Part shown: piece by piece, positions 41,930 through 61,366 of the stretch
Numbering within the stretch: the stretch's first letter is position 1
How the letters are laid out: each line of letters opens with the position of its first letter
Origin: Candidatus Culexarchaeum yellowstonense
Lineage (GTDB): Archaea > Thermoproteota > Methanomethylicia > Culexarchaeales > Culexarchaeaceae
Direction: 5' to 3'
NCBI GenBank assembly: GCA_024707015.1
Contig: JANGFR010000002.1
Coordinates: 74,007 to 138,006 of the forward strand
Length of the DNA stretch: 64,000 nt
Translations under genes and position numbers: made by a program
Notes under the pieces: model-generated
Database searches by the model: none
What the model saw: only the letters and a program-made list of their open reading frames with translations
Told to the model about the DNA's origin: nothing

Positions 41930-42583
41930 CTATTCTGGCTTTACGATTATTGGCATAGTTACGCTTCCACTATAGACTTTTACATGGAATCCAATGGTTA
42001 TGTATTTGAATTCGCTATACCATATTTCGGCATATGGGTTTATGATTACATGGACTGCATAGTCAATATGTGCATACAAAGTTTTTGGGAGGTAATCGCG
42101 ACCACGATGAATGTGATAAACGAAAATGGATTCGGATAAATTACCGGGGAAAGATTTATAATAAAGAAAGGAGGTGGTGGCATACCAGTCAATAGTGGTG
42201 TCATTGCGATAAGCGAATAAGTTGATCGCTTCAACCGTTACGATAAAGCCTTTTACTAATGGATTGTATGTTTTCTCATTTATCTTCTTTACTATAACGT
42301 TTATTTCATAAATGTCTCGTGGATTTATTGGGCTAAATATGGGTGTGGGGATGTATATGATTAATCCGAAATCAGCCTCCCCAAGAAAACCACTATAATG
42401 GATTATTGTGCTATTAAATTTTATACCTTTAAACCAGATTAGAGATCTATTGAAAGATTCTAACCCAATTGGGTTTAAGTGTTGTGGGCATGTGAAATAG
42501 TTTCCTAACAGAATAAACGCTAAGAGTATTGTTAAAAAGATTGTTATGCATTTTTTGTTTAGGTATTTCCTCATGATTATCAC
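41930..42583 (-). CDS. Hypothetical exported protein
   Basis: 217 aa. N-terminal signal/anchor (ITIFLTILLAFILLG). Aromatic-rich. Confidence 0.4.
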   Translation of the reverse strand: MIIMRKYLNKKCITIFLTILLAFILLGNYFTCPQHLNPIGLESFNRSLIWFKGIKFNSTIIHYSGFLGEADFGLIIYIPTPIFSPINPRDIYEINVIVKKINEKTYNPLVKGFIVTVEAINLFAYRNDTTIDWYATTSFLYYKSFPGNLSESIFVYHIHRGRDYLPKTLYAHIDYAVHVIINPYAEIWYSEFKYITIGFHVKVYSGSVTMPIIVKPE

Positions 42584-42691: not shown

Positions 42692-43057
42692 TTAGATTGG
42701 CATTGGAATTGTTGGTGTTATGAGTCGTGTTAGGCTGGAGAGGATGTAGGTTATTATTAGTATGAATAGGCTTCTGGACCAGCTTGATCTGTATATGAAT
42801 TTTATGATGGATAGGTATATTATGAGTTTTAGGATGTATGAGGCTTGGAATTGGTTGAATGATGATATTATTGAGTTCATTAGCATGATCATTGTGGAGG
42901 AGGCTATGGCTAGGGGGAGGCTTTTGAGTCCGACTATTTTGGAGCTTAAGTATATGATTATGGTTAATAGGATGAAGCTTATTGTTAGATAGGGTAGGGA
43001 TTGTAGGATTGATGTTGGGTCGTAATTGGTTGCAGTTGTTATGTTAAGATTTGTCAT
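42692..43057 (-). CDS. Small integral membrane subunit, last gene of the membrane-bound hydrogenase operon (possible Mrp/MbhA-G-like or NuoK/J-like piece)
   Basis: 121 aa with about 3 TM helices. Overlaps the upstream NuoI-like gene by 14 nt. Confidence 0.4.
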   Translation of the reverse strand: MTNLNITTATNYDPTSILQSLPYLTISFILLTIIIYLSSKIVGLKSLPLAIASSTMIMLMNSIISSFNQFQASYILKLIIYLSIIKFIYRSSWSRSLFILIITYILSSLTRLITPTIPMPI

Positions 43058-43616
43058 ATAGGACGTGCTTCCTTGTGTGGATATTTAGTTTGAAGCTTAG
43101 GGTTTTTCTGCAATTTGGGCATAGGTGTAGGTATTTTGGTAGATCTTCTTGGGCGTATTGTATGGCTTTAGCCTCCTTTAATCCACTCATTAACCTATCG
43201 GTGATGCGGTTAAGTTGCTTTTCTGGTGCAAAGTAGTTTCCGCAGTTAATGCATTTTGAAAGTTCAATTGTGTTTGAAACTTTGAGTTCCGATTTATTGT
43301 TTGATGCTATTTCGAATTTAGTGGTTAAGGTTAATGCATCTTCAGGGCATACTTCGGCGCAACGCCTACAAAACACACACTTATTCAAATTAATGTTTAA
43401 ATTACGTTTACCCTCCGCGTCTATGTATGTTAATGCACCGCTACTACATTGGCTAACGCATGCACTGCACCCAATACATTTATCTGCATTGAATTCGGGC
43501 ATACCGCGCAGAGTTTCTGGAACACTACTATACTTCTCAACGCCAACACCAGCAGGATACTTAATTGTGTATGGTTTACTTAGAGCTTCAATGGCTCTCT
43601 TAAATGATTTGAGCAA
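43044..43616 (-). CDS. 2x[4Fe-4S] ferredoxin subunit of a group-4 hydrogenase (NuoI/EchF/MbhN-like)
   Basis: CIGCSACVSQC...CP and CVFCRRCAEVCP are two CxxCxxCxxxCP motifs. A C-terminal Cys-rich tail includes CINCGNYF. 190 aa. Confidence 0.8.
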   Translation of the reverse strand: MLKSFKRAIEALSKPYTIKYPAGVGVEKYSSVPETLRGMPEFNADKCIGCSACVSQCSSGALTYIDAEGKRNLNINLNKCVFCRRCAEVCPEDALTLTTKFEIASNNKSELKVSNTIELSKCINCGNYFAPEKQLNRITDRLMSGLKEAKAIQYAQEDLPKYLHLCPNCRKTLSFKLNIHTRKHVLYDKS

Positions 43617-43617
43617 T

Positions 43618-44628
43618 TCATGCCACCCCCAAAATAAACCTGATGATTATGGAGAATATTATGGAGAATGCGGATAAGGGCCATAGGTACTTGATGGCCC
43701 ATGAGACTGCTTGATCAATTCTAAATCTTGGGGCTATTGAGTGAACTATGGATATTATGAGTGTGACTATGAAGCACTCCAATAGGAAGACTATGAAGTT
43801 GAATATTTGATTGTATATGCTTGTTGGTGGCAGTATAAGTCCCCCTGAAAGGAATAGGTTTACAAACAATCCGATGAGGACTGATGTTAGAATGTATTTT
43901 GAGGATAATATTGTTGCTAGAAGTTTTCCGGAGTATTCTGTGTATGGACCTGAAACTATCTCCACATCAGCTTCAGGTATTTCGAATGGGTTGAAGTGCA
44001 GTTTCCCAAGTACTGCAATTATGAAAACTATGGCTGCGAAGGGGTTTAGAAGGATTATTGGATAGGATTTCAGCTGAAAACTCATGATGCCGCCAATCGA
44101 TAATGAATTGGATATTATGGCTGAAGAGAATATTGATGAGAGCAATGAAACTTCAATTACAAGCATCAGCTCAGCCTCCCTCCTAGATCCAACAACACTC
44201 CAAGGTGATGATGATGCCAAACCACCCAAAACCCAGAATAGGGATACACCAATTAAAATGTATGTTATGAAGATTATGCTGAGCGGATTATCTGCAAGCA
44301 AGCTTAAACCACCATAAGATATAAAGTATGTGGATAAAACTGCCAGGATGAAGCTTACTATTGGTGATGAAACAAATAAACCTTTACGTGCACTTCTAGG
44401 TATAATCGTCTCCTTAAACATCAATTTCAAAACATCGTAGAGGGGTTGTAAAACCCTACTTGAACCTAAAAGCCCCCTCAACTCACCATGCATTGAAAGT
44501 AGTGGTCCAAGCCTATACTGACTCCTAGCATAAACCTTCCTAATCTCATAATTGAACAAGACTCCAAGGATGAAGCATAACACTGGAATAAATATTATTG
44601 CTAGGAGCACAACCATCACCCCCTCCAA
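43618..44628 (-). CDS. Membrane subunit of a group-4 hydrogenase (NuoH/EchB/HycD/MbhM-like)
   Basis: 336 aa with about 8 TM helices. N-terminal RKVYARSQYRLGPLL resembles the NuoH R-x-GPxxxG loop. Overlaps the large-subunit gene by 13 nt. Confidence 0.75.
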   Translation of the reverse strand: MEGVMVVLLAIIFIPVLCFILGVLFNYEIRKVYARSQYRLGPLLSMHGELRGLLGSSRVLQPLYDVLKLMFKETIIPRSARKGLFVSSPIVSFILAVLSTYFISYGGLSLLADNPLSIIFITYILIGVSLFWVLGGLASSSPWSVVGSRREAELMLVIEVSLLSSIFSSAIISNSLSIGGIMSFQLKSYPIILLNPFAAIVFIIAVLGKLHFNPFEIPEADVEIVSGPYTEYSGKLLATILSSKYILTSVLIGLFVNLFLSGGLILPPTSIYNQIFNFIVFLLECFIVTLIISIVHSIAPRFRIDQAVSWAIKYLWPLSAFSIIFSIIIRFILGVA

Positions 44629-46247
44629 CCCTTAAATGCTAGATTCTTAAATTCATCACCACTCAAAGTCCACTGCTCCCCCCTCTTGGAATCAACTATC
44701 ATTACACGATCTGTGCATGAGAAGCATGGGTCAACGCTACCAATAATTATTGGTGCATCTGCAAGTCTACAACCTTTAAGCATGAATTTGAGGGCTGCAA
44801 TATTACGGTAACTTGGAGTTCTAATCCTAACAGTGTGCGGTATATCCATACCATTCGAAATTACGTAGTAGACTAGTTCACCCCTAGGAGCTTCAACCTT
44901 ACTTAAAGCTTCACCCTCAGGGAATGGTTTAAGTTCTGAAGTAGCTACTGGTCCACCAATACTCTTCAACCTATCAACACATTGTAGACATATATCTATG
45001 GATACAAGGGTTTCCTTAACTCTAACCATAACCCTTGAAAGTACATCCCCAGCCTCCTCAACCACAACATCCCAACTTATATGCCCCTCATCATAGAATG
45101 AGTATGGACTATCCCTTCTAACATCAATCTTCCATCCACTAGCCCTAGCAGTTGGCCCTACAGCTCCAGCCTCCCTAGCATCACTTAGAGACATGACACC
45201 TACACCCTCAGTCCTACGCCTAACAATGCTATGTGAAGCTATATCTTCAGCTAGTTTTTTGAAATCCCTCTTAACTTCAAGCAGTTTACTTTCAACTTTA
45301 CTAAGCTGCTCCTTAGTGACATCGAATCTTACGCCGCCAATACTCATGGAATCTGCATGAACCCTATTGCCCGATAGCAATTCAATGCAATCCTGTATTG
45401 GCTCCCTAATCTTCCAAGCCCACATGAGCAAAGTTTTAAAGCCAATCAAGTCTCCTGCAACGCCAAGCCATAGGAGGTGACTATGTATCCTATTCAACTC
45501 AGCCATTAAAACCCTAATATACTCAGCCCTCTCAGGGACATTTACCCCAAGAATGCGTTCCACAGCATTCACGAAAGCCAATTGATGCGGAACACTACAT
45601 ATACCACATATCCTACCAACAAGGAATAGGTCACGCCAAAAAGTCCTACTCTCAGCCAACTTCATTATCCCACGATGATTCAAACCAACCTTAATATCCA
45701 CATCAACAACATCTTCACCATCAACGAATAACTTGAAGAATCCACCTTCAAGCATTGCCGGATGATATGGACCTATGGGTAGAGTGACTTGCTTAACCCC
45801 AGCCTTAGATTCACTGGAACTCTCAACTGGGTTAGGCCACTCAAAGGGGAGGAAGATGTGTCTAGGGTCGGGGTGACCATCAAACTCAACTCCAAGGAGC
45901 TCCATAGTCTCCCTCTCAGCCCAATTAGCTTGATAAGTCAATTGTGCAACTGATGGAAACTTCGCTGGTTCACCATCACCATAAGCATACAATATTACAT
46001 GGGCATGTCTATCTATGTGTTCAAGACTGTAGATGTGCATGAGCCTAATACCATCAAAACCCATGTCTGAAGCTGTGACATGGACAATTCTAGAGCCTAT
46101 GGAAAGCATGTATTTAGCTGCATCCAGAAGCCTATTTGGACTGGTCTTAACACGTACATGCTTACCTCCACAACCATAACCAGTAATTTCAAAATCGGGT
46201 TTAAGGATGTTTCCAAGCTCATTTAAAACATCATTTAAACTCTTCAT
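44616..46247 (-). CDS. [NiFe] hydrogenase large subunit, group 4, fused NuoC-like + NuoD-like (HycE/EchE/MbhL-type)
   Basis: N-terminal NuoC-like domain (about 150 aa), then RICGICSVPH (RxCGxCx3H Ni/Fe-binding motif L1) and C-terminal DPCFSCTDR (DPCxxCxxR/H motif L2). All four metal-ligand Cys are present. 543 aa. Confidence 0.85.
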   Translation of the reverse strand: MKSLNDVLNELGNILKPDFEITGYGCGGKHVRVKTSPNRLLDAAKYMLSIGSRIVHVTASDMGFDGIRLMHIYSLEHIDRHAHVILYAYGDGEPAKFPSVAQLTYQANWAERETMELLGVEFDGHPDPRHIFLPFEWPNPVESSSESKAGVKQVTLPIGPYHPAMLEGGFFKLFVDGEDVVDVDIKVGLNHRGIMKLAESRTFWRDLFLVGRICGICSVPHQLAFVNAVERILGVNVPERAEYIRVLMAELNRIHSHLLWLGVAGDLIGFKTLLMWAWKIREPIQDCIELLSGNRVHADSMSIGGVRFDVTKEQLSKVESKLLEVKRDFKKLAEDIASHSIVRRRTEGVGVMSLSDAREAGAVGPTARASGWKIDVRRDSPYSFYDEGHISWDVVVEEAGDVLSRVMVRVKETLVSIDICLQCVDRLKSIGGPVATSELKPFPEGEALSKVEAPRGELVYYVISNGMDIPHTVRIRTPSYRNIAALKFMLKGCRLADAPIIIGSVDPCFSCTDRVMIVDSKRGEQWTLSGDEFKNLAFKGWRG

Positions 46248-46253
46248 CCCAGA

Positions 46254-47777
46254 TCACCATAAATCCATAAATTTAAACATAACATCATTATGGAGGGATA
46301 CTCCATAGGCTAGAAAGCCATGATACATTATACCAATTATAATTGATATTAAAGCTAAGAGGATTATGGAGGTAAACATTAAATCTGGTTTCTCCCTAAA
46401 AACGCCACTACCCCTAGCTGAAGCCACAACTATTCCGAGGAAAACACATAAAACTATTATACCACTGAGATATATTAAACCCTCATATATTGAGCTTGGA
46501 ATACCATAAAACTGATTGCCAGAATAAATGATTGATTCCATCACCATATGCTTACCATAATAACCTGAGAAGAATGGAAGTAAACCTGAAACGCTCATCC
46601 CACCTAAAATAATGATGAGTGAAGTGATGGGCATAGACCTAGTTGCCATTGAAAGTTTAAGCCAATTCCTCTCATGGAAAACCTTCACATACAAACCTGC
46701 AGATAGGAAGAGGAGTGCCTTAGCAATTGAATGTGCAAATAGGTATAATGCTGATCCAAAAATGCATAGATATGCTTCATAACCACTCATGGAAACACTT
46801 AAACCAATTGATGAACCTAGGAACCCCATACTCAAAATGCTACTGAAGGCTATAACCCTCTTAATATCCCTATCAATTATCATCCCCAACACTCCAAGGA
46901 CAATATTAATTAAACCTGAAAGGGTTATGAAAGCCCCCACATCCATTGAAATTATTGGTGAAAGTGAATAAACGTATTTCAATATTGGGATATATGCAGA
47001 CTCTATTATTACACCTGAAAGCATTGCACTAACTGGTGAAGGTGCTTCCGAGTGAACTAATGGGAGCCATAGGAGTGCAAGTGGAGATGTGCCAGCCTTA
47101 ATTCCAAAACCTAAAAGGATTAGGTAGGAGGCAAATTTGAAATTCCAATCATAAATCCCATATCTACTCAACCTATAAACATCCAGTAGATCGAAGTGTA
47201 AACCATAACCATTGATGAGGAGGCATACCCCAATTATTATTAGAATAGACTCTAAAATCGACATGGCCAAGTATACTATAACTGAAATAACAGCTCTACC
47301 CCTACGTTCACCATACAAAACTAGAATTGCACTCAGAGCTGTGGAAGCTTCAAGAAAAAATAGCATGTAAATCAAATTGCTAGATGACACCAGCCCAATT
47401 AGTGTCGCTAATAGAATTGGTATAATTGCAAAGTACAATCTAAATCTACCATTCAATTCAGAATCGAAATATTTGATTGAGTATAATGTTGATATTAAAC
47501 CAACAATCAATATAACCTCACACATAGCATAAATAAGGAAATCCGTAAACAATTTTGATTCCAGCTCAGCTAACCCAGCTGCTAATATTCCTGCTAATGG
47601 TATGGCGTTAACAATTAATGAGGAGAATATCAATAATGTGGAGAGGTGTATGGAATATTTTGATTTAAATGCTGAAATTATTAGCGATGATAAGAATAGA
47701 AGTGCATATGTCAATATGAGGTTAATGCTCACCCTTCTCATCCTCCATGAATGGTAGATTAAATATGTAGATTTCAT
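46254..47777 (-). CDS. NuoL/M/N-type (Mrp antiporter-like) membrane subunit of the hydrogenase (EchA/HyfB/MbhH-like)
   Basis: 507 aa with about 14 TM helices and conserved antiporter-like charged residues in the membrane. The start is possibly the internal Met (MRRVSINLIL). Confidence 0.75.
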   Translation of the reverse strand: MKSTYLIYHSWRMRRVSINLILTYALLFLSSLIISAFKSKYSIHLSTLLIFSSLIVNAIPLAGILAAGLAELESKLFTDFLIYAMCEVILIVGLISTLYSIKYFDSELNGRFRLYFAIIPILLATLIGLVSSSNLIYMLFFLEASTALSAILVLYGERRGRAVISVIVYLAMSILESILIIIGVCLLINGYGLHFDLLDVYRLSRYGIYDWNFKFASYLILLGFGIKAGTSPLALLWLPLVHSEAPSPVSAMLSGVIIESAYIPILKYVYSLSPIISMDVGAFITLSGLINIVLGVLGMIIDRDIKRVIAFSSILSMGFLGSSIGLSVSMSGYEAYLCIFGSALYLFAHSIAKALLFLSAGLYVKVFHERNWLKLSMATRSMPITSLIIILGGMSVSGLLPFFSGYYGKHMVMESIIYSGNQFYGIPSSIYEGLIYLSGIIVLCVFLGIVVASARGSGVFREKPDLMFTSIILLALISIIIGIMYHGFLAYGVSLHNDVMFKFMDLW

Positions 47778-48015
47778 CCATATGGATGTATGGAGGTTTA
47801 GCTAAACCACACATGAAAACTGAATCCAAATCTACATTACGTGATTGAAGCCATGGAATTAAAACTATGAATGTCAAATAGAATATTGAAGTTGAAGCTA
47901 ACTCAACTAGGAATAATGTTAGAATGATATCTGATGTTAAGGGTACAATCCAAAATCCAATGGCCAACAATCCTAACGATATTATTAGGGGGATGTACAT
48001 GTACTTCAACTTCAT
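47722..48015 (-). CDS. Small membrane protein within the hydrogenase operon
   Basis: 97 aa with 2-3 TM helices. Overlaps the NuoB-like gene by 4 nt and its 3' end overlaps the annotated start of the NuoL-like ORF. Confidence 0.35.
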   Translation of the reverse strand: MKLKYMYIPLIISLGLLAIGFWIVPLTSDIILTLFLVELASTSIFYLTFIVLIPWLQSRNVDLDSVFMCGLAKPPYIHMDEIYIFNLPFMEDEKGEH

Positions 48016-48464
48016 TTAACCACCCCACACCTCTCACGTAGGATGCTTATTGCCTTAACAACACCATTTATTATGGCTTCAGGTTTTGGTGGGCATCCAG
48101 ATACAAAGACATCCACTGGGATAACCTTATCTGCTCCACCAAGGATTGCATAAGTTTCTTCACCCTCAACATCATTGAATATTCCACCAGAACAGGCACA
48201 TGAGCCTATGGCGACAACAACCTTTGGGTTTGGAACTTGCATATAAACTCTCTTCATGAATGATGCAATATGCTTTGTAACTGGACCTGTAACTATTAGG
48301 ATGTCTGCATGCCTTGGAGATGTAACCAATTTAATCCCAAATCTCTCAACATCAAATCTTGGGGTTAATGCTGCAACAAGTTCAATGTCGCATCCATTAC
48401 ATCCACCAGCATGTAAATGGTAAACCCATGGTGAATATGTGAACATCTTCTGTTTAAACCCCAT
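48012..48464 (-). CDS. [NiFe] hydrogenase small subunit, group 4 (NuoB/EchC/MbhJ-like)
   Basis: Cys ligands for the proximal [4Fe-4S] in GGCNGCDIE, GSCACSGG and C-P (SGCPPKP). 150 aa. Its start codon abuts the stop of the upstream HdrB-like gene. Confidence 0.85.
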   Translation of the reverse strand: MGFKQKMFTYSPWVYHLHAGGCNGCDIELVAALTPRFDVERFGIKLVTSPRHADILIVTGPVTKHIASFMKRVYMQVPNPKVVVAIGSCACSGGIFNDVEGEETYAILGGADKVIPVDVFVSGCPPKPEAIINGVVKAISILRERCGVVK

Positions 48465-49328
48465 TTAACCCACCAACCTACCAATTATATTTTCAGTTGA
48501 AATTGCATGTGTATTTAAGCCGAAACTTTCTGGCTTAATTCCAAAACTTAAAGCTAAGAGTTCACTTAAATGTAACACTGGAATCCCATATTCTAATCCT
48601 TCATCTTTGAATGTCAATTGGGCTTTCTCAAATTGATCGTAGCATGCTGGGCATGCAACTACAATTGCATTTGCACCTGAATTCTTTATGGCATCAAGCT
48701 TCCACTTAGTCCTCTCCCTCATAGCCTTATCCACCGAGTATAGCATTAATGGGTATCCACAGCAAACACGCTCCAAACCATAATCAACGATCTCAACATT
48801 CAAAGCCTTCACAATTTCCCTAAGATACTTGGCGCCCCTCTCATCACTCATCTTATATAATTTGCATCCTGGGTGAAGTGCAACTTTAAGCCAACTTAAA
48901 TCCACATTAACATTGCTTCTAATAGCATTTAAACCAACATCTTCAAACAATACTTCAGTATAATGTTTAACTTTAATAGTCCCATTAAATTTCAATCCAA
49001 ACCCCTTAAGATTCCCATTAATCTTCTCCCTCAAATCACTTGACTCAATAAGCTTCTCCCTAGCTTCATGCAGAGACTCCCAACACCCATTACACATCAC
49101 AATTATATCCCTCCCAATAGCTTCAGCTAAGGATAGGTTTCTAGCAGCCACAGTTAACCATAAATCTTCATCTACAAGTCTAGCTATTTCTGGAACTGGG
49201 CAGCATGAAGCTCCATTTATATCGAGGAGGTTGATTCCAAGTTTACTGGATATGGCTCTCATGGATGATTCAGCAAATGGCTGCATTGCAGGTATATAGC
49301 ATCCTAGGAATAGACTGTATTCAAGCAT
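48465..49328 (-). CDS. CCG-domain (Cys-rich) protein, HdrB/HdrD-C/GlpC/Sulfolobus-SdhC-like
   Basis: Two Cys-rich repeats: C...CCP...CNGC and C...CCG...CPAC (287 aa). The first has CCP instead of CCG. Confidence 0.75.
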   Translation of the reverse strand: MLEYSLFLGCYIPAMQPFAESSMRAISSKLGINLLDINGASCCPVPEIARLVDEDLWLTVAARNLSLAEAIGRDIIVMCNGCWESLHEAREKLIESSDLREKINGNLKGFGLKFNGTIKVKHYTEVLFEDVGLNAIRSNVNVDLSWLKVALHPGCKLYKMSDERGAKYLREIVKALNVEIVDYGLERVCCGYPLMLYSVDKAMRERTKWKLDAIKNSGANAIVVACPACYDQFEKAQLTFKDEGLEYGIPVLHLSELLALSFGIKPESFGLNTHAISTENIIGRLVG

Positions 49329-49343
49329 ATGGATACCTCCAAC

Positions 49344-49622
49344 CTAATATTTGAAATCCCTCCTATCAAAGTCAAATCCAATCCTTCTACCAGCACCAAT
49401 CGATTTAATGAGATTGAACATTTGATTCACATATTCAGTGTTGCTATATGCTGTTGGGGGTATGCTTGGCAAACCAATCCTACTCCTAGTCCTCTGCATA
49501 TATCTAGAAAGCATTGGAACATGACCAGTTCTAAGTATACTCCTAATTGGAGATTTAAGTGAATCCTGCAATCCCACAATATCCTTCCTTAATGGGTGAA
49601 TTTTACCTTCGCTGGAGCTCAT
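49344..49622 (-). CDS. Small basic protein of unknown function inside the Hdr/hydrogenase operon
   Basis: 92 aa, Cys-free, Arg-rich. Overlaps the upstream polyferredoxin gene by 4 nt and has a 15-nt gap to the downstream gene. Confidence 0.3.
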   Translation of the reverse strand: MSSSEGKIHPLRKDIVGLQDSLKSPIRSILRTGHVPMLSRYMQRTRSRIGLPSIPPTAYSNTEYVNQMFNLIKSIGAGRRIGFDFDRRDFKY

Positions 49623-50104
49623 GATCTCACCCTCTCCAAAACCTCCCTCCTAGGTAATACTTGAAGTGCACCAGTACTACAATACTTTGCACATAGAAAT
49701 TCACCTTTACATGCATCGCATTTAACGCTAACCCTCAACCTCTCATCGAAAAAAGGTATTGAGATGGGGCATGCATAATTACAGCTTCTACAACCAATAC
49801 ATAGAGCTGGATTTATGAGTACAAATCCTGTTACAGTATCCTTACTTATAGCTTTAGGTTCCACTGGACATGCAGCCATACAAAATGGGTCTTGACAATG
49901 ACTGCAGTAGTTGTTTATGAAGAGTGGATTCCCCTCAGGGTTCAATGCCACCATCAAGTATGCCTTCGAAATATCAATTACCCCATAATGCTTGTATGAG
50001 CAAACCTCCATGCAATATAGGCATCCTGAACATTTATTTGGATCGTAGAAGAGCACTTTCTGTTCCTCTAAATTCAAGGTGCATGCCCCACAACAATTTT
50101 TCAC
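49619..50104 (-). CDS. Polyferredoxin, 4x[4Fe-4S] (HycB/DmsB/HdrC-like electron-transfer subunit)
   Basis: Four CxxCxxCx3C-type motifs: CSGCLYCMEVC, CSHCQDPFCMAACP, CIGCRSCNYACP and CDACKGEFLCAKYC. 161 aa. Confidence 0.8.
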   Translation of the reverse strand: MKNCCGACTLNLEEQKVLFYDPNKCSGCLYCMEVCSYKHYGVIDISKAYLMVALNPEGNPLFINNYCSHCQDPFCMAACPVEPKAISKDTVTGFVLINPALCIGCRSCNYACPISIPFFDERLRVSVKCDACKGEFLCAKYCSTGALQVLPRREVLERVRS

Positions 50105-50502
50105 TGCTGATACTTAGAGTACTCCTCGGCAGTTAAAAGTTCATCCTTCTCCTCTTCCCACTTTGTTGGTTGAATTATAACTAGCCATCCAGCTCCATAT
50201 GGATCTGCATTAACAAGTGATGGCTGCTTTAAAACCCTCTCATTAACCTGCTTTATAACACCACTAACTGGGGATATAAGGTCGCTGGTGGCTTTAGTGG
50301 ACTCTATAACTCCGAATGGCTCGTACTGTGAAACTGTTGTGCCAACATTCTCTAATCTAATTCTCCTAACGGTCTTCAGCATCTTTTGTGCATAATCTGT
50401 TATCCCAACCCTAACGGTTCCATCGGGCAGAAGTTCAGCCCATGTATGGTCTGGAATGTAATATATGCCTTCACGCAAAACATAACTCTTACTCATACCC
50501 AC
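50101..50502 (-). CDS. Glycine-cleavage H-protein-like lipoyl-carrier protein (GcvH/LbpA-like)
   Basis: HTWAEL...VRVGITDYAQKML...ESTKATSDLISPVSGVI...NADPYGAGW reproduces the GcvH fold motifs (HxW, GITDxAQ, ESVKAxSDxxxPxSG, NxDPYGxGW), with the lipoyl-Lys in ESTKA. 133 aa. No gcvT or gcvP nearby. Confidence 0.75.
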   Translation of the reverse strand: MGMSKSYVLREGIYYIPDHTWAELLPDGTVRVGITDYAQKMLKTVRRIRLENVGTTVSQYEPFGVIESTKATSDLISPVSGVIKQVNERVLKQPSLVNADPYGAGWLVIIQPTKWEEEKDELLTAEEYSKYQQ

Positions 50503-50593
50503 ACACCTGGCAAAATAAGATTATACTTGATTTCTTAAATAGTTTACCATAAGCCAGCAAAGTGAAATATAGGTTGATTTAAAAAAATGTGGT

Positions 50594-52273: not shown

Positions 52274-52981
52274 CTATCCCTCCGGACTTTCAATATCCCT
52301 ACTATCATACAACTTCTTCAGTTCAGCAGAGCTCATTTTAACCAGCTTATCAAGTTCCATATCAAATTTCCCCTCCTCTATCTCCTTAACCCTAATTTCA
52401 AGATGCTTGGCTTTTGGAGCCATATATTTGCCATAGAGCCTCCTAACCAACTGAAATACGTGATAATGGATTATTTCAGCTGGACATCTAATGCTACATA
52501 ATCCACATGAAATGCAGTCAAAGCATAACTCAGCGGCTTTGGCTATATCCCCCCTCTTAATCATCTGTATTGCATCCATAACCTGCAATTCCTGTGGGCA
52601 TGCCTTAGTACAAGAATTGCATGCAACACATCTAGCTACTTCGGGATATAATGCCAATACATTTGCACCTGTAGGCTTTAACTCCTCAATATTATACTTA
52701 ACCTTCTCCGCTGGTGCAAAGGGTATTTGAACAAGGTACATTCCATCTTGAACTGTTGTTTGGCATGCTAGAGCTGTGTAGAGCCTATAATCCCCCTTAA
52801 GCCTATATATCGTTGCACATGCACCGCAGAATCCACCCCTACAACCAGCACCCCTAATATACTGGTATCCAGCATACTCAACAGCCTTCATTATAGTTAT
52901 CCCAGCAGGAACTTCATACTCCTTACCCATAATGTATATTTTCACGGTCCTCTTAGGTTCAGTTTGACCCGCCATGTTCAT
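52274..52981 (-). CDS. Iron-sulfur subunit, SdhB/FrdB-like (2Fe-2S plus 2x[4Fe-4S]-type Cys clusters)
   Basis: Plant-ferredoxin-like CRGGFCGAC...C, then CVACNSCTKACP and CFDCISCGLCSIRCP. 235 aa. Overlaps the downstream HdrB gene by 4 nt. Confidence 0.75.
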   Translation of the reverse strand: MNMAGQTEPKRTVKIYIMGKEYEVPAGITIMKAVEYAGYQYIRGAGCRGGFCGACATIYRLKGDYRLYTALACQTTVQDGMYLVQIPFAPAEKVKYNIEELKPTGANVLALYPEVARCVACNSCTKACPQELQVMDAIQMIKRGDIAKAAELCFDCISCGLCSIRCPAEIIHYHVFQLVRRLYGKYMAPKAKHLEIRVKEIEEGKFDMELDKLVKMSSAELKKLYDSRDIESPEG

Positions 52982-53832
52982 CCACCACCAATTTTACTCT
53001 TAAAGATTGAAAGGGTTTCTTGGGATAGTTTTTCGTCGAGGCCCATGGCATAAGCCATCAACTCAGTGAAATATAGTGTTGGTATATTAAATTTGTTTCT
53101 AACGATATTTAAGTTGTAATGGCAAAGTGGACATGCAGTTATTATCATATCTGCACCCCACCTCCCAGCAGCCCTAACTATCTCCCCAACAGTCCTCTCA
53201 ACCATACTCCTATCATAAACCACATTATAAGAACCACAACACCTCTTCTCATATGGGAATTTAATGGGCTTAGCGCCTAAACTGGAGATCAAATCTGATA
53301 GTATGTGTGGATCTTCAGGGTCATCTATACCAATACCCCTTGGTCTAAGTAGTGAACAACTATAGAATGGTGCAACCTTTAATTTGCTTAAATCCCTCTT
53401 AACAGCCTCCCTAACCCTCTTTAAACCTATGATATTATCATCCAATATTATTTCAAGCACATGCTTAACATCCACACCACAATTATATCTAGGCTCATCA
53501 TCCATGTACTTACTTAGATTGTCAAGCTTCTCAGGATCACTTGTAACGATCTCATTAACCTTCTTCAATGTGCTATAACACATGGAGCATAGGGTTATAA
53601 GCCTATTATCCCCAACCTTACCCATAAACTCCTGAGCCCTTACAAGATCCCTCAGTGGAGCAACATGCTGCATAACTGCATCAGCAGAATACTCATACAT
53701 CACACCACAGCAATTCCATCTATCCAGCTCCACAAGCTCCACATCAAAAAGCTTCAAAACTGCAATGGCGGAATCCTCATAGCTTTTAGCGTAATCCTTA
53801 ACTGAGCAGCCAGGGTAATACATGAACTTCAA
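52978..53832 (-). CDS. hdrB: Heterodisulfide reductase subunit B (two CCG domains)
   Basis: PGCSV...CCG...CSMC and C...CCGSY...CPLC give two full Cx(n)CCGx(n)CxxC repeats. 284 aa. Confidence 0.8.
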   Translation of the reverse strand: MKFMYYPGCSVKDYAKSYEDSAIAVLKLFDVELVELDRWNCCGVMYEYSADAVMQHVAPLRDLVRAQEFMGKVGDNRLITLCSMCYSTLKKVNEIVTSDPEKLDNLSKYMDDEPRYNCGVDVKHVLEIILDDNIIGLKRVREAVKRDLSKLKVAPFYSCSLLRPRGIGIDDPEDPHILSDLISSLGAKPIKFPYEKRCCGSYNVVYDRSMVERTVGEIVRAAGRWGADMIITACPLCHYNLNIVRNKFNIPTLYFTELMAYAMGLDEKLSQETLSIFKSKIGGG

Positions 53833-53838
53833 CCACGA

Positions 53839-54210
53839 TCACCCCGTAAGCTTCCTTGAAGCTGATATCAGAGCTATTTGAGGTAAATCCCCAAGCCCCT
53901 TAACCCTCCTCAAATCCACTGGATAAATGTTTTTACGTTGAACAATGGTTCTAAGGACATTTATCATTCTAGCTGGATCTATATCCCTCGGACACCTAAC
54001 ACTACAAGTATTACATGAAGCACAAACCCAAATGGTCTTGCAATTCAAAACCTCAGGCATATCGAGTTGAATCATCCTTATAACTTGATGTGGAGGAACA
54101 TCCATATCCTTAATCATTGGACAGCTACCACTACAAATACCACATTGAATACATAGGTATGGATTCTTCCCACTCAACTCATAAACAGTTTGAGGTAAAC
54201 CTCTAAACAT
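53839..54210 (-). CDS. hdrC: Heterodisulfide reductase subunit C (2x[4Fe-4S])
   Basis: CIQCGICSGSCP and CASCNTCSVRCP with the HdrC-type C-terminal extension. 123 aa. Confidence 0.8.
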   Translation of the reverse strand: MFRGLPQTVYELSGKNPYLCIQCGICSGSCPMIKDMDVPPHQVIRMIQLDMPEVLNCKTIWVCASCNTCSVRCPRDIDPARMINVLRTIVQRKNIYPVDLRRVKGLGDLPQIALISASRKLTG

Positions 54211-54221
54211 GACTACACCCC

Positions 54222-56612
54222 CTAAACCTTAATCCTCCCCCTATCCTCAACACTCAATGGGCCAAGCTTCTCCACAATGGATACAAGATCACCTAAATCC
54301 TTCACAAGCCTCTCAGCCATATCGACGGCTATGGTGTCAAATTTAAGCCTCCTAGCATCAATCCTATATTTCCTCATCTGGGATCTAGCCTCCCTAATAA
54401 CATCGTTAATTACATCTAAAACTTTGGGATGATATGGCGATGCCCCCTCAAGGCAGTCTCCAATGAAAACTCCATCAGCACCATACTTGAATGCACTCAA
54501 TATTATTTTTGGTGTAAGTCTACTTGCACTTGGAACAGTTATAACCCTAACCCTATTATCATAGGTAAGCCTACTGGTACCTGCAAGATCTGCAGCCCTA
54601 TAAGTGCAGGAGTCATCGAAGAATGCTATAACTCTAATTTCACCATCCCTCTTACTCTTAAGAGCCCCCTCAATCTGGCTTAAAATTTGCTTCTCACTGT
54701 AATGCTTCAATTCAATAGCCCCCCTTGGGCAGTATGGTATGCAACTTCCACAACCAACACATAGAGCTTCACTAATATGCGCCTTACCATCCACCATACT
54801 TATAGCCCCCAGCGGACACTTATCAACACATACTCCACAACCATTACATAATTCAGCAATTACATAGGCTTTTATTGGCTCTATAAGTATCCTACCCTGA
54901 CTTATGAGTCTAAGAGTTCTCCCAGCAGCTGCACTGGCCTGAGCCACACTATCAGCTATATCCTTAGGTCCCTGTGCACACCCACATATGAAAACCCCCT
55001 CCCTAAGCGTATCCACAGGCCTATACTTCGGGTGAGCTTCAAGGAGGAATCCATCTGGACCTATATTCAACTTGAGCTTCTTAGCCAACTCCTCAACACC
55101 ACGTGATGGAACTAGACCCACAGATAAAACCACAAGATCAAATTCATCTTCAATAAATCTTCCAGTCAACGTATCTTCAGCCCTAACTATAACCCTACCA
55201 CTCACGGGATCCTCAATGACCTCACTAACCTTCCCCCTAACGAATTTAACACCCAAATCCTGTGCCCTCATATAGTATTCTTCAAACCCCTTACCATAAG
55301 CTCTAATATCAATGTAGAATAAGGTTATATCCCTAGTTACATCTTGCCTCTTCAACGTCATAGCCTGCTTAATAGTGTACATGCAACAAACCCTCGAACA
55401 TCCAGGTCTACCAATCTGCTCATCCCTAGAACCCACACAATGTATGAATGCAATCTTCCGGGCAAGTTGACCATCAGATAACCTAATAACCTTACCACCA
55501 GTTGGGCCTACTGGCATAACCATCCTCTCCAATTGTGGCGCTATTATAACATTCTTGTATACTCCGTAACCGTACTGTTTAAGTTTAGTTGCATCGAAGG
55601 GCTCATAGCCAGTGGCAACGATTATTGCATCCACAACAATATCCAATATCCTCTCCTTATCATCGAAGTTTATAGCCTTCTGTGGGCAAACCCTCTCACA
55701 AACCCTACATATCCCCTTAGTTAAGTATAGGCAGGATTTTGGGTCTATGAGATACTTGTATGGAACAGCCATTTCATGTGGAACGTATATTGCCCTCCTA
55801 TTCCTAAGGCCATAATTGAATTCATCTGGCGCAGATGCAGGGCATTTTGATGCACATATCCCACAAGCAACACATTTACTCATATCAACATATCTCGGTT
55901 TAACCTTAACCTTAACATGGAAATCACCCACACTCCCACTAACATCCTCAACTTCACTGTAAGTCAATAATGTAATGTTTGGATGATTATACACTGCAGC
56001 CATTTTTGGTGAGAGTATACAGAGGGAGCAGTCGTCAGTTGGGAATGTGTAGCTTAACTGAGCCATCCTACCCCCAATTGCGGGTTCCTTCTCAACCAAG
56101 TAAACTTTACAACCAGAATCAGCCAAATCCAATGCAGCCTGAATCCCAGCTATGCCAGCACCAATAACCATAACCCTATTCCCAACCTTAACCTCCCTCG
56201 CCTTCAGAGGTTCATTAAGATTAACTTTACCAATAGCAGCCATTATCTGATCAATGGCTCTTCTGGTAGCCCCATCTGGATCGTTGGAGTGAACCCATGA
56301 ATCCTGCTCCCTAATATTAACCATCTCAAACAAGTATGGGTTTAAACCAGAATCCTCGAGGAGCTTCATGAATGTTGGACCGTGAAATTTTGGGGAACAA
56401 GCTGCAATGATAACCCTATTCAAATTATATCGTTTAATATCCTCCCTAATCTCCCTCTGACCAGCCTCAGAACATACATGCTCATTATCCTTAACTAGAA
56501 CAACACCATCAACACCGCTAATGGCCTTCAAAACCTCATTTATCCTAACGACATTGGATATATTTCCACCACAATGACAAACATAGACACCAATCCTAGC
56601 ATCATTAGCCAT
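54222..56612 (-). CDS. hdrA: Heterodisulfide reductase subunit A with a C-terminal MvhD-like domain fusion
   Basis: N-terminal VYVCHCGGNIS (HdrA N-domain), FAD-binding VIGAGIAGIQAALDLADSG, inserted ferredoxin motifs (CVACGICASKCP, CRVCERVCP), a C-terminal 2x[4Fe-4S] domain (CNGCGVCVDKCP / CVGCGSCIPYCP), then an MvhD-like tail (FFDDSCTY...FKYGADGVFIGDCLEG). 796 aa. Confidence 0.85.
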   Translation of the reverse strand: MANDARIGVYVCHCGGNISNVVRINEVLKAISGVDGVVLVKDNEHVCSEAGQREIREDIKRYNLNRVIIAACSPKFHGPTFMKLLEDSGLNPYLFEMVNIREQDSWVHSNDPDGATRRAIDQIMAAIGKVNLNEPLKAREVKVGNRVMVIGAGIAGIQAALDLADSGCKVYLVEKEPAIGGRMAQLSYTFPTDDCSLCILSPKMAAVYNHPNITLLTYSEVEDVSGSVGDFHVKVKVKPRYVDMSKCVACGICASKCPASAPDEFNYGLRNRRAIYVPHEMAVPYKYLIDPKSCLYLTKGICRVCERVCPQKAINFDDKERILDIVVDAIIVATGYEPFDATKLKQYGYGVYKNVIIAPQLERMVMPVGPTGGKVIRLSDGQLARKIAFIHCVGSRDEQIGRPGCSRVCCMYTIKQAMTLKRQDVTRDITLFYIDIRAYGKGFEEYYMRAQDLGVKFVRGKVSEVIEDPVSGRVIVRAEDTLTGRFIEDEFDLVVLSVGLVPSRGVEELAKKLKLNIGPDGFLLEAHPKYRPVDTLREGVFICGCAQGPKDIADSVAQASAAAGRTLRLISQGRILIEPIKAYVIAELCNGCGVCVDKCPLGAISMVDGKAHISEALCVGCGSCIPYCPRGAIELKHYSEKQILSQIEGALKSKRDGEIRVIAFFDDSCTYRAADLAGTSRLTYDNRVRVITVPSASRLTPKIILSAFKYGADGVFIGDCLEGASPYHPKVLDVINDVIREARSQMRKYRIDARRLKFDTIAVDMAERLVKDLGDLVSIVEKLGPLSVEDRGRIKV

Positions 56613-58342: not shown

Positions 58343-59062
58343 TTATTTTTTGACCTTCTTGTAGTAGTCGTATCCTAGTAGTGTGGCTAATAGTAGTAGT
58401 GCAACCCATGGGAAGAACATCTTGTTTTCAGGCGCATATGGAGGTATACCTAGTAAGAACTGTGCTCTACCAATGAACATGGACATTCTTGTTAGTACTG
58501 TGTATCCGTATGCTGAGCCGAAGCCTATCATCATGGCATATCTAGCAAACTTGTTAATAGGCTTCCAGAAGGCAGCTTCCTGCTTTAATGTGAAAGTGAA
58601 GTATAATAAGACGCAGATCACAATGGCGGCTGTAACTAGATTGTTGAATGCAGTCCAAGGATCCACACCAATGAAGGTCAATCCAGCTGTAGCGCTAACC
58701 TGTCTAATAAGCTGAGCAAAGACTATGGTTCTCAAAGCCAATCCGATACCAGTACCAACGACGACGGCCAATGCAATTCTGTAGAGCCAGAAGAATCTCT
58801 TAGAGAATCTGAAATACCATAATACACTTACGAGTAATGCAAGTATGAAAGCAGCTGTACCGCTGGTGGTCGTTGACCATGTGCCCTCCCATTGACTCCT
58901 CAGCCAATCCAAGGAGTATGCAATATCATATCCAGTGGCTGTTCCTATGAAGACGTATTCAGCTAATCTAGACCATGGATTCTCCTTGTATAGGAATGTG
59001 TAAACTGCAAGTGTGAAGAATACTCCGCAGAATGCTGCAAATAGTGTGGTTATGTCTGTCAT
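58343..59062 (-). CDS. Integral membrane protein (unknown function), last gene of a four-gene membrane operon
   Basis: 239 aa with about 7 TM helices. Overlaps the upstream gene by 4 nt. Confidence 0.45.
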   Translation of the reverse strand: MTDITTLFAAFCGVFFTLAVYTFLYKENPWSRLAEYVFIGTATGYDIAYSLDWLRSQWEGTWSTTTSGTAAFILALLVSVLWYFRFSKRFFWLYRIALAVVVGTGIGLALRTIVFAQLIRQVSATAGLTFIGVDPWTAFNNLVTAAIVICVLLYFTFTLKQEAAFWKPINKFARYAMMIGFGSAYGYTVLTRMSMFIGRAQFLLGIPPYAPENKMFFPWVALLLLATLLGYDYYKKVKK

Positions 59063-59919
59063 TTAACTCCCCTCCTCTTCTTAGCAAAATATCCAATGTT
59101 GCCTATGATCACGAATATTAGGAAGACCATATGGGTTGTCGATAATGCATCAGCTGAAGCTACTGCTAGACCCTTCCTGCCTATTAGAAGCTCGTACTCT
59201 GCACCAGCCCTCAAACCTGGAAGCATACCCTTAACCTGACCTGACTGAACATATGGAGTGACACCTGGAGCGCTAACCCCTATACATGCAATTAACATTG
59301 GAACATTATATGTGCCCCACTGCCTAACCCACTCATCAACGCCAGGTGTACCAGTCTCTATACTTATAAGTAGTTGAACATCATTAGCAGACCTCAAATT
59401 CTGCATAATTGGATATTCACTAACGGGACGCTTATACAGATAATCTGTGGGGAAAACTTTCCAGAAGTCTTGCCCCAATGCACGCATAGCAACTTCACCT
59501 CCAGGAGCCCATCCTAGAAATATCCAATCCACACCATACTTCTTACCATAAGTAACCTCTGGGTTCAACTCGTCAATGATCATTTTAGCGACAAGGGGTC
59601 CCTGATTCCATATAGCTATAATAGCGAACTTTATAGGTCTACTGAACAAGTGATGCATAGTTGCCACAGCAATTGGGTAAAGCTCTCCAAGAGATCCCAA
59701 ACCGAAGTCAAAGGATAAGACAACCATGGAGCCTGGGGGCAAATTCTGTATGGTTCTATAGTATGCTTCGGTGTTAGGACTTATACTCACAGGCAACCCT
59801 ATTGGGGAAATCATTGGAGTTAAAACGACTATCCATATGAGTAGGTATATTATTCTGGAATCGATGTTTTCAAGCTTCTCCCAAATACTAATACTACCAG
59901 ACATTTTACGTCCCCCCAC
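59059..59919 (-). CDS. Membrane-anchored protein of unknown function
   Basis: 286 aa. N-terminal TM, large soluble domain and a C-terminal TM plus basic tail (KKRRGVK). Overlaps neighbours on both sides. Confidence 0.45.
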   Translation of the reverse strand: MGGRKMSGSISIWEKLENIDSRIIYLLIWIVVLTPMISPIGLPVSISPNTEAYYRTIQNLPPGSMVVLSFDFGLGSLGELYPIAVATMHHLFSRPIKFAIIAIWNQGPLVAKMIIDELNPEVTYGKKYGVDWIFLGWAPGGEVAMRALGQDFWKVFPTDYLYKRPVSEYPIMQNLRSANDVQLLISIETGTPGVDEWVRQWGTYNVPMLIACIGVSAPGVTPYVQSGQVKGMLPGLRAGAEYELLIGRKGLAVASADALSTTHMVFLIFVIIGNIGYFAKKRRGVK

Positions 59920-60568
59920 CCCTCAAATAGCCCCTCTCATAACCAGTTAACGTTCTAATACCCAGAACTATGGCTCCGAGGGCAGCCCCAATTATGATTG
60001 ATCTCTGAACAGCCATATTGGGAACGTTGAAAAGCCAATCACCAAGACTTGAGACTTGAGGTACTAGGAATGTTCCCAGAGGGGCATTCCTAAACACCAG
60101 TATTGACCCAGCAATCAATAGTAATGCAGCTTCAAGGGATCTAGCCTTAAAAGCTCTATAAGCAGCTGAAGCTATGAAGAATGCTAACATAGCATATAGG
60201 CTGCTATCCAATGGTGTTAAGACATTGTTTGTTAGGAAATTGAATATATCGTTATTCATTCCGAGACCCCACTCCCAAATTGGCAAACCAACTATCATCA
60301 TCACGAACATTAAGATTAATAGGATTAAACTATACTCCCAGTATTGGCGTCTTTTAACGACTCTTGGAGCATGAACTAAGATTATGGAGATTGCACCTAC
60401 AAACAGAGCCCCAGTAGCTACAACCATCTCCCAATTCACAGCATTATCCATGAAGCTCTCAACATCTGGACCCAAAGTGAAGAAGTATGGGATTATCTGT
60501 ATCAATGCACATATAACTGTTACTGCTATTGGAATTTCAACACGTTTATACCATGCCAACCCAAACAC
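59906..60568 (-). CDS. Integral membrane protein (unknown function)
   Basis: 220 aa with about 6 TM helices. Overlaps the downstream gene by 14 nt. Confidence 0.45.
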   Translation of the reverse strand: MFGLAWYKRVEIPIAVTVICALIQIIPYFFTLGPDVESFMDNAVNWEMVVATGALFVGAISIILVHAPRVVKRRQYWEYSLILLILMFVMMIVGLPIWEWGLGMNNDIFNFLTNNVLTPLDSSLYAMLAFFIASAAYRAFKARSLEAALLLIAGSILVFRNAPLGTFLVPQVSSLGDWLFNVPNMAVQRSIIIGAALGAIVLGIRTLTGYERGYLRGGGT

Positions 60569-60571
60569 CCC

Positions 60572-61366
60572 CTACATCTTCAATATATCAACAATAAAAT
60601 TTGAACCAGCAAGCCCAAGCAATATCCCCACAACTATAAGCAATAAAGATATTATTTTGCCTATGTCTTGTGCTACTATGCTTCCAATCATTGCTGGATC
60701 TTTGCTTAGGTATGCCCCTGCAGCATAGATTTCTTCACCTATCAGGGTATAATCCGTGGCGACCACGAAGAATGGAATCTGATGAGTATTAGCAGTACCA
60801 GCAACTTGCATAGCACCAACCTTATAACCAGTCTCCGCAAGCTGTAGAGACTCAGCCCAATATGCACCAATCATAACGTTTGCACCAGCCCTCTCCCTCT
60901 GCATCAAACTCATATAACCAAGCGAATAGCTAAACTGCCACGTGGACAAGTATGGTATATCATCCAACTTAAACTGCTCAAGCTTACCCTCCATCCTATA
61001 AGCATTCTCAACAATCTCCCTAGCAATGGGGTAGACTGTTAAGCTGACAACTGGGACTATAACTCTAGTACCATACTTAGCGCATAAACGTGCAACATAA
61101 CTTAATACTGAGAGCCCTGCAATGGTCTGCGGACCATAAGTTGAATCATGAATATCTGCAAGACCCTGAGAGCAGAATACTGGTCTACCCATTTCAGTAG
61201 CTCTACCCACAGCCTCATCAATAGCATCCAAACCTGAAACTCTACGGATGCTAGGTACTTTCCCCCTTTTACCCCTCTCAATAAAGTAGACGGTTGCAAT
61301 TGTGATTATCAATAGGATCACTAGACCACTAGCCCTACCAGATTGTACAAAAGACATAGAATTCAT
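60572..61366 (-). CDS. Membrane-anchored protein of unknown function (N- and C-terminal TM helices flanking a soluble domain)
   Basis: 264 aa. First gene of the overlapping four-gene cluster. A 169-nt AT-rich upstream region follows. Confidence 0.45.
   Translation of the reverse strand: MNSMSFVQSGRASGLVILLIITIATVYFIERGKRGKVPSIRRVSGLDAIDEAVGRATEMGRPVFCSQGLADIHDSTYGPQTIAGLSVLSYVARLCAKYGTRVIVPVVSLTVYPIAREIVENAYRMEGKLEQFKLDDIPYLSTWQFSYSLGYMSLMQRERAGANVMIGAYWAESLQLAETGYKVGAMQVAGTANTHQIPFFVVATDYTLIGEEIYAAGAYLSKDPAMIGSIVAQDIGKIISLLLIVVGILLGLAGSNFIVDILKM

Follow-up and report, generated by a model that had tools for sequence, protein, structure and literature searches.

The gene hdrA*, at positions 54222–56612 of a 64,000-nucleotide (nt) stretch of Candidatus Culexarchaeum yellowstonense DNA (contig JANGFR010000002.1; the whole stretch is called the window), encodes a heterodisulfide reductase (Hdr) subunit A, HdrA, fused to an MvhD-like tail that very probably binds no [2Fe-2S] cluster of the MvhD type. 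The gene heads a five-gene block that also encodes HdrC, HdrB and a pair of succinate dehydrogenase (Sdh)-like subunits. In solved Hdr complexes electrons pass the [2Fe-2S] cluster of MvhD last before they reach the bifurcating flavin adenine dinucleotide (FAD), and the electron path over the 20–25 Å from that cluster to the FAD is unexplained (PMC13580544, PMC12350162, PMC13518236). With the cluster deleted and the fold, a non-ligand cysteine (C669) and a Cys pair of HdrA kept, HdrA* offers a natural experiment that may separate the structural from the electronic parts of the input arm, and it is informative for how electrons reach the bifurcating flavin.

A complete HdrA core and an MvhD-like tail

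Positions 54222–56612 correspond exactly to one ATG-to-stop open reading frame (ORF) of 796 amino acids (aa) that starts with MANDARIGVYVCHCGGNIS; a preliminary description of this DNA had given the same coordinates, without the minus strand on which the ORF lies. Over residues 4–652 the alignment to HdrA chains of known structure from hydrogenotrophic methanogens runs end to end and has no large gaps (8rvu_a, E 4.7e-225; 5odc_A, E 1.2e-222), and HdrA* is 51.6% identical to M. marburgensis HdrA. The hallmarks of the HdrA family are all present: the N-terminal [4Fe-4S] domain, the TrxR-like FAD domain with its GxGxxG motif, the inserted and C-terminal 2x[4Fe-4S] ferredoxin domains and the Cys set of the fourth cluster. 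All 24 of the 24 cysteines for six [4Fe-4S] clusters are found in the core and are 100% conserved across the clade described below, in which the C195/C198 pair is also invariant. The FAD-site Lys and Glu (K409 and E356 in M. thermolithotrophicus numbering) align with MYTIK415 and QLE362RM, a pairing made through our own numbering offset. A full-length AlphaFold2 model (predicted local distance difference test, pLDDT, 89; predicted template-modelling score, pTM, 0.84; pLDDT 92–97 in the tail region) superposes on 8rvy_A, the HdrA of the Elp-Hdr complex, with a template-modelling (TM) score of 0.90. By sequence and model, the core is a complete six-cluster HdrA of the bifurcation type, and the end-to-end alignment and the full set of cluster cysteines agree with the earlier account of it. 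The closest proteins are 98% identical (in 'archaeon YNP-LCB-003-016') and 94% identical (in Ca. Culexarchaeum nevadense), and identities of 88–94% are found to proteins in metagenome-assembled genomes of Culexarchaeum and Methanomethylicia.

The tail matches Pfam FlpD (PF02662) over residues 661–784 (E 4.3e-25, 88.6 bits vs a cut-off of 22.3) and, by phmmer, every solved MvhD, ElpC and VhuD chain (best 5odc_D, E 4.5e-17). Its identity to MvhD is 33%, compared with 49% for the tail of M. acetivorans HdrA2. An AlphaFold2 model of residues 638–796 (pLDDT 93.5, pTM 0.90) has MvhD 5odh_D (TM 0.91, root-mean-square deviation 1.5 Å, 133 columns, E 1e-12) and ElpC 8rvu_F (TM 0.94) as its best Foldseek matches in the PDB; unrelated folds appear only from E ≥ 5e-3. 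A predicted long helix (residues 731–748) sits at the place equivalent to VhuD helix N76–L93. The models show the tail to keep the MvhD fold, including this putative docking helix. The HdrA-MvhD fusion proposed in the preliminary description is borne out by the Pfam, alignment and fold matches, and its caveat that the tail might not be MvhD-like falls away, given that MvhD and ElpC are the best folds and unrelated ones begin at E ≥ 5e-3.

The tail lacks most of the cluster ligands

The M. marburgensis MvhD cysteines C12, C13, C16, C42, C67 and C72 correspond in HdrA* to F665, D666, C669, S695, C720 and S725, so that two of the six conserved MvhD cysteines remain (C669 and C720). Because our literature search gave no explicit list of MvhD ligands (none was found in the accessible literature), the ligand set C13, C42, C67 and C72 was taken from conservation and not from coordinates. 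All four are kept in 101 of the 132 domain representatives that cover the four positions (out of the best 150 representatives of the tail domain at 50% identity), among which position 12 is variable (L, F, V, C or A), and all 19 HdrA2 homologues in the alignment of Yan et al. (PMC5296606) have the same pattern. Cys16 has been described as an 'additional' conserved cysteine between the cluster and the FAD (PMC13580544, a structural paper of 2026). With this ligand set, one of the four inferred ligands remains in HdrA* (C720), C13, C42 and C72 being replaced by Asp, Ser and Ser. The tail is therefore MvhD/FlpD-like in sequence and fold and does not have the four-Cys ligand set of that family.

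The two altered motifs quoted in the preliminary description, FFDDSCTY and GDCLEGASPYH, are located as listed in Table 1; a third, VPSAS for VMCSG, had been missed. Ligands are indeed gone, as had been stated, but the loss is heavier than the 'some' of that description, since the second surviving cysteine is the equivalent of the non-ligand Cys16. The count of two of six cysteines and one of four inferred ligands, made against MvhD and HdrA2, also disposes of the possibility that all ligands are in fact present. An MvhD-type [2Fe-2S] cluster in this tail is thus very improbable on the alignments.

Ligand loss as a fixed family trait

We compared 98 proteins of 780–835 aa among the 120 best homologues of HdrA*, from bacteria and archaea (Culexarchaeia, Thermoplasmata, WOR-3, Aerophobetes, Eisenbacteria and unnamed metagenome bins). 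The ligands are gone in 98 of 98, and the replacing residues are themselves conserved: D666 and P694 in all 98, S695 and P726 in 97 and S725 in 92. Outside the pocket, invariant positions include Y671, D675, G678, Y684, G711 and R755; the positions of H68 and D71 are not conserved within the clade. C669 and C720 occur together in 65 of the homologues and are both missing in 32, with a single protein having one of the two, and the pair changed at least three times on a tree of the HdrA core. The two cysteines thus seem to act like a functional pair that one third of the family has dispensed with. Tails with no cysteine at all occur in 32 of the 98, and loci with such tails (L022, L031, L036 and L040; L numbers denote loci with relatives of hdrA*) retain the same operon, so a Cys-ligated cluster cannot be required.

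All cluster-less domains form one clade, with a single change of state, on a neighbour-joining tree of 112 near-complete domains, a crude tree built with the Cys columns removed from a sample biased towards HdrA* relatives. Other types of substitution also fall in this clade, in a 791-aa HdrA of Methanobacterium and in a set from Baldr- and Odinarchaeota. A metagenome scan returned 35 of 35 cluster-less tails, a figure that follows by construction from search patterns taken from cluster-less tails and says nothing of prevalence. As an internal control, the free-standing MvhD genes near hdrA* (L009, L017, L018, L022, L024 and L040) all keep the pattern xCCCCC. The cysteines are kept in genuine HdrA2 and in every nearby free-standing MvhD, which argues for strong selection on them where the cluster is used.

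The conserved replacements, the loss in every size-matched homologue and the monophyly on the 112-domain tree do not sustain the word 'degenerate' of the preliminary description in the sense of a one-off. Judged from these comparisons, ligand loss is the fixed state of an old and large clade and not a local defect. In the accessible, non-subscription literature we found no mention of cluster-less (Cys-less) MvhD tails.

A conserved block with Sdh-like partners

Between hdrA* and a divergent HAD-phosphatase gene lie 117 nt with a TATA-like TTATAAAT box, which makes hdrA* the first gene of its unit. The order is hdrA*-hdrC-hdrB-sdhB-like-sdhA-like, with gaps of 11, 6, -4 and 3 nt (Table 1); hdrA* thus shares its locus with hdrC and hdrB, a trait of HdrA. 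All five genes of the block are found intact in the window and at L001, L004–L010 and L013, carried by Culexarchaeum, Culexmicrobium, one WOR-3 bacterium, one Thermoplasmata archaeon and other bins. It is present in 19 of the 24 metagenome loci with readable downstream sequence (17 of 22 when two near-identical pairs are counted once), and these include loci with Cys-free tails. Among Culexarchaeia, Asgard archaea, Thermoplasmata, Bathyarchaeota, WOR-3, Aerophobetes and Acetothermia there are relatives of HdrA* and of the flavoprotein. Confirmation of the block itself comes from Culexarchaeia, WOR-3 and Thermoplasmata. We found no paper on this Hdr-Sdh-like block in the accessible, non-subscription literature.

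The SdhA/TfrA-like flavoprotein is 64–70% identical across Asgard archaea, Thermoplasmata, Bathyarchaeota, Thermococci and Acetothermia, a stronger conservation than that of its HdrA partner. At the dicarboxylate site the HPT, Arg, His and Arg residues are present, and the protein carries a conserved N-terminal extension of ~92 aa with no Pfam match. Asn stands in place of the His to which succinate dehydrogenases attach FAD covalently. In the SdhA/FrdA family, the lack of this His points to the fumarate-reductase-type direction, and the Asn of the present protein, by analogy, points the same way. Its best NCBIfam match is TfrA (321 bits vs a cut-off of 718); on the nadB model it scores 271 bits vs a cut-off of 453. 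Elsewhere in the window, nadC and nadA are adjacent (22071–23841, minus strand) with no nadB beside them, and the only NadB-related flavoprotein within the window is this Hdr-linked SdhA-like protein.

In the published model of the Ehe complex (PMC9723716), the 235-aa iron-sulfur (Fe-S) protein was drawn as 'CdhA', a subunit of carbon monoxide (CO) dehydrogenase. It matches cdhA over a 64-residue ferredoxin stretch only (41.5 bits vs a cut-off of 781), and its motifs are those of an SdhB/TfrB-like protein (Fer2 plus 2x[4Fe-4S]). The CO oxidation proposed for the cluster thus has no catalytic subunit here. The idea that the [2Fe-2S] cluster of the SdhB-like protein replaces the lost MvhD cluster was considered and set aside, as at L009 and L040 an SdhB-like gene occurs alongside a true MvhD.

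Next to the block lies a gcvH-hydrogenase unit, the 'Ehe' complex of Kohtz et al., with genes for GcvH, a Fer4_11 protein (polyferredoxin), orf92, a second HdrB, a NuoB-like subunit, orf97, an antiporter subunit, a NuoCD-type [NiFe] large subunit, a NuoH-like subunit and a NuoI-like ferredoxin. This membrane-bound hydrogenase is of group 4, and its large subunit keeps both CxxC motifs; no soluble hydrogenase lies in the window, in line with the preliminary description, in which the only hydrogenase of the operon is membrane-bound. That description had thereby placed the hydrogenase in the hdrA* operon. It does adjoin, but as a separable unit beyond a 91-nt gap (50503–50593) between the sdhA-like gene and gcvH that contains an oligo-T run and a TATA-like box. 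In sister genera, Culexmicrobium among them, the gcvH-hydrogenase unit is divergent from hdrA* (L004, L005, L007 and L008), so that the two are neighbours rather than a single operon. What was described as the 'Ehe plus Hdr' cluster is accordingly a pair of transcription units that have stayed adjacent. Four small ORFs without a Pfam match lie inside or just after the hydrogenase unit on the minus strand (49344–49622, 47722–48015, 42692–43057 and 41930–42583; 92, 97, 121 and 217 aa); orf92 and orf97 are position-conserved in all Culexarchaeia loci examined, and orf97 looks, by eye, hydrophobic and membrane-like.

GcvH bears the lipoyl-Lys motif here, and its gene adjoins in every Culexarchaeia locus. 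Beyond the nearest Culexarchaeia relatives, a gcvH homologue stands upstream of hdrA* in L020 (3245–3667) and in L035; the tails at these two loci are 36–41% identical to that of HdrA*, and both belong to the type with the Cys pair.

Several bacteria and archaea have a canonical hdrA(~650 aa)-mvhD-mvhG-mvhA set directly beside the hdrA* block (L009 450–8900; L017 1–5129; L022 1–4614; L024 7553–12390; L040 2428–4913). At L022 the second hdrA and the Mvh genes precede hdrA*, and the 14.5-kilobase locus has a single hdrC-hdrB pair. A mixed HdrA/HdrA* heterodimer with one working input arm is conceivable.

Table 1. Coordinates of hdrA*, its motifs and the neighbouring genes in the window
Feature	Position	Strand	Basis or remark
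hdrA*, 796-aa HdrA fused to cluster-less MvhD-like tail	54222..56612	-	ORF; PDB HdrA E 1e-225
HdrA Cys pair C195-x2-C198 (M. marburgensis C202/C205)	56019..56030	-	alignment; between MvhD cluster and FAD in solved complexes
MvhD-like tail, aa 653–796	54225..54656	-	Pfam FlpD aa 661–784 at 54261–54632
FFDDSCTY for MvhD FCCNWCSY	54600..54623	-	C12 to F665; ligand C13 to D666; non-ligand C16 is C669
VPSAS for MvhD VMCSG	54522..54536	-	ligand C42 to S695; P694 adjacent
GDCLEGASPYH for MvhD GCHxGDCHY	54429..54461	-	C67 is C720; C72 to S725; H68 to L721; D71 to A724
hdrC, 123 aa, 2x[4Fe-4S]	53839..54210	-	profile matches
hdrB, 284 aa, two CCG domains	52978..53832	-	profile matches
sdhB/tfrB-like Fe-S subunit, 235 aa	52274..52981	-	Cys motifs: one [2Fe-2S], two [4Fe-4S]
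sdhA/tfrA-like flavoprotein, 558 aa	50594..52270	-	dicarboxylate-site residues; Asn for covalent-FAD His
gcvH-hydrogenase neighbouring unit ('Ehe' complex of Kohtz et al.)	43044..50502	-	profile matches

What the tail may do

In solved complexes MvhD is both a [2Fe-2S] relay to the FAD of the partner protomer and an adaptor (PMC12350162, PMC13580544), and the VhuD helix N76–L93, together with the N- and C-terminal regions of HdrA, binds the input module (PMC13518236). The HdrA* tail keeps the fold and the equivalent helix and has lost the ligands, which argues for a scaffold or docking element with no MvhD-type cluster; of the two options offered in the preliminary description, a cluster site or a docking module, the second fits better for the same reasons. 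We lean, with some reserve, towards a complex in which the Sdh-like pair forms the second catalytic module and the tail serves for scaffolding or docking. HdrA* would then be a fully equipped, bifurcation-type HdrA with a cluster-free MvhD paralogue permanently fused to it, and electrons would bypass the usual MvhD entry route. The tail would form a scaffold or docking surface of the 'arm' made by the N- and C-terminal parts of HdrA. HdrA* would work within the five-gene unit, with HdrC, HdrB, the SdhB-like protein and the SdhA/TfrA-like protein with its presumably non-covalent FAD; this flavoprotein module, whose substrate is probably fumarate or a related dicarboxylate, would be the redox partner that the tail holds. 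The membrane hydrogenase and GcvH encoded next door may exchange ferredoxin or a dithiol with the unit.

Several observations weigh against a purely structural tail. The invariant Asp and Ser and the co-varying Cys pair suggest that the old pocket still does something, and a pure scaffold would not obviously need either. The sdh-like genes are absent in 5 of the 24 readable metagenome loci. In L009 and L040 an MvhD gene of the cluster-bearing kind stands on its own just before the sdhB-like gene, an arrangement that could mean that a true MvhD is the usual docking point of the Sdh-like module. The AlphaFold models, moreover, contain no cofactors.

The same residues raise the question of whether the pocket has been rebuilt into another redox or metal site, the chief alternative reading, which we regard as rather unlikely. 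C669 and C720 might pass two electrons to the FAD together with C195/C198, as in thioredoxin and lipoamide reductases, with possible donors including a protein dithiol such as lipoyl-GcvH; or C669 and C720, with D666 and S695, might hold a non-standard metal centre. Such a site would account for the co-occurrence of the two cysteines (65 both, 32 neither, one single) through at least three independent changes, for the place of C669 at the Cys16 position, between cluster and FAD and beside the HdrA Cys pair, for the invariance of C195/C198, and for the near-invariance of D666, S695 and S725; a gcvH with the lipoyl-Lys motif adjoins in all Culexarchaeia loci and lies upstream in L020 and L035. 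One third of the clade, however, has the same five-gene block without either cysteine, which makes the pair dispensable for the core function; most loci have no gcvH; and H68 and D71, which contact an unknown ligand in M. marburgensis, are not conserved. The specific proposal that a thiol-based two-electron entry from C669/C720 to C195/C198, fed for instance by lipoyl-GcvH, has replaced the Fe-S relay appears quite unlikely. Were it true, HdrA would be loaded like lipoamide or thioredoxin reductase, and HdrA* would be a natural dissection of the 20–25 Å gap between MvhD cluster and FAD in the canonical complexes.

That the tail still holds a [2Fe-2S] or similar cluster, through C720, C669 and Asp/Ser or through ligands from another subunit, and is still the point of electron entry, is highly improbable. 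D666 is invariant, and Asp can ligate Fe-S clusters in some proteins, for example E. coli SdhB and Pyrococcus ferredoxin. The Culexarchaeia paper also treats the protein as a bifurcating HdrA2 (PMC9723716). Set against this are the single canonical ligand, the 32 of 98 orthologues with no tail cysteine, the fixed Ser and Pro replacements, and the retention of all four cysteines in genuine HdrA2 and in every free-standing MvhD nearby. A functionless remnant, left from an ancestral HdrA-MvhD fusion whose hydrogenase partner was lost, could explain the missing cofactor ligands and the lower identity of the tail to homologues outside Culexarchaeia (37–42%, vs 51–55% for the core). It too is very unlikely, given a full-length tail in 98 of 98 clade members from bacteria and archaea, eight invariant positions with many more at least 90% conserved, a confidently predicted fold and an old, diversified clade of cluster-less domains.

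Comparison with known systems

The only characterised fusion is M. acetivorans HdrA2, of the HdrA2B2C2 system described by Yan, Wang & Ferry 2017 (PMC5296606). HdrA2 shares with HdrA* the C-terminal MvhD fusion, its length (793 vs 796 aa) and HdrB and HdrC partners, though these are encoded elsewhere than beside hdrA2. It differs in that HdrA2 and 19 aligned homologues keep C13, C16, C42, C67 and C72, in an overall identity of 44%, and in having no sdhAB-like partners. HdrA* scores 969.9 bits on the NCBIfam HdrA2 model NF040770, under the cut-off of 1100; it thus has the fusion architecture of the HdrA2 type, and neither the score nor the MvhD cluster motifs. The parallel with Methanosarcina HdrA2 drawn in the preliminary description is therefore not an equivalence. 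The Culexarchaeia paper labels the gene cluster 'HdrA2B2C2' and treats the protein as a bifurcating HdrA2 (PMC9723716), a label that appears only partly apt and whose mechanistic assumption is unsupported by the residues present. Two corrections to the published Culexarchaeia model follow: 'HdrA2B2C2' should not be assumed to be like that of M. acetivorans, and 'CdhA' is SdhB-like. The block points to an uncharacterised five-subunit unit of Hdr and fumarate-reductase-like proteins.

MvhD, VhuD and ElpC (5ODC, 7BKB and 8RVU) share with the tail the fold (TM 0.90–0.94) and the equivalent of Cys16, and a helix is predicted in the tail at the place of their docking helix; they are free-standing subunits whose [2Fe-2S] cluster feeds the bifurcating FAD, whereas the HdrA* tail is fused. 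Another counterpart is the 791-aa HdrA of Methanobacterium (WP_069582731, 'ferredoxin:CoB-CoM heterodisulfide reductase subunit HdrA'), which passes the threshold of NCBIfam NF041891. It has a cluster-less C-terminal MvhD-like domain (pattern xDISx) in the same clade, but belongs to another subclade, has no residual Cys pair and comes from a cultured methanogen, which makes it an experimentally tractable relative. In ElpA and the cofactor-less 'Molybdop' subunits (PMC12350162, PMC12054007), fold and place in the complex have likewise outlived the loss of a cofactor; these are truncated or altered members of the FdhA family, in which molybdopterin has gone rather than an Fe-S cluster.

Taken together, the sdhA-like, sdhB-like and hdrB products cover the domains of TfrA and TfrB, the thiol:fumarate reductase of Methanothermobacter. 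Here these domains score far under the family cut-off, are divided among three genes and come joined with HdrA and HdrC. The sulfur-oxidising Hdr-like system sHdr, with its lipoate-binding protein, is different: its HdrA is short, with one cluster and ~350 aa (6TJR), compared with the full six-cluster HdrA*, and 6tjr_A matches residues 329–569 only. Nor is the gene order hdrC1B1A-hyp-hdrC2B2 with LbpA, the nearby GcvH-like gene being the only similarity. No qmoA, qmoC or aprAB is present in the window or the related loci, as a QmoB setting would have, the neighbours being hdrC, hdrB and sdhAB-like genes. Cluster-less 797-aa matches that had been suspected to be QmoB are, by NCBIfam, HdrA-type proteins of Baldr- and Odinarchaeota. 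On these comparisons the cluster-less MvhD tails and the Hdr-Sdh-like block appear to be new, whereas HdrA-MvhD fusions and cofactor-less subunits of the Hdr arm were already known.

Other features of the window

No transfer RNA gene and no Rfam family at threshold was found anywhere in the window. At 58343–61366 on the minus strand, three ORFs with no Pfam match (239, 286 and 220 aa) are followed by a DUF6754 protein, and upstream of them lie a gene like those for oxaloacetate decarboxylase alpha and pyruvate carboxylase B and a biotin carrier gene. The remainder is housekeeping: a branched-chain amino-acid ABC transporter, peptidases, deoxyhypusine synthase and radical SAM enzymes.

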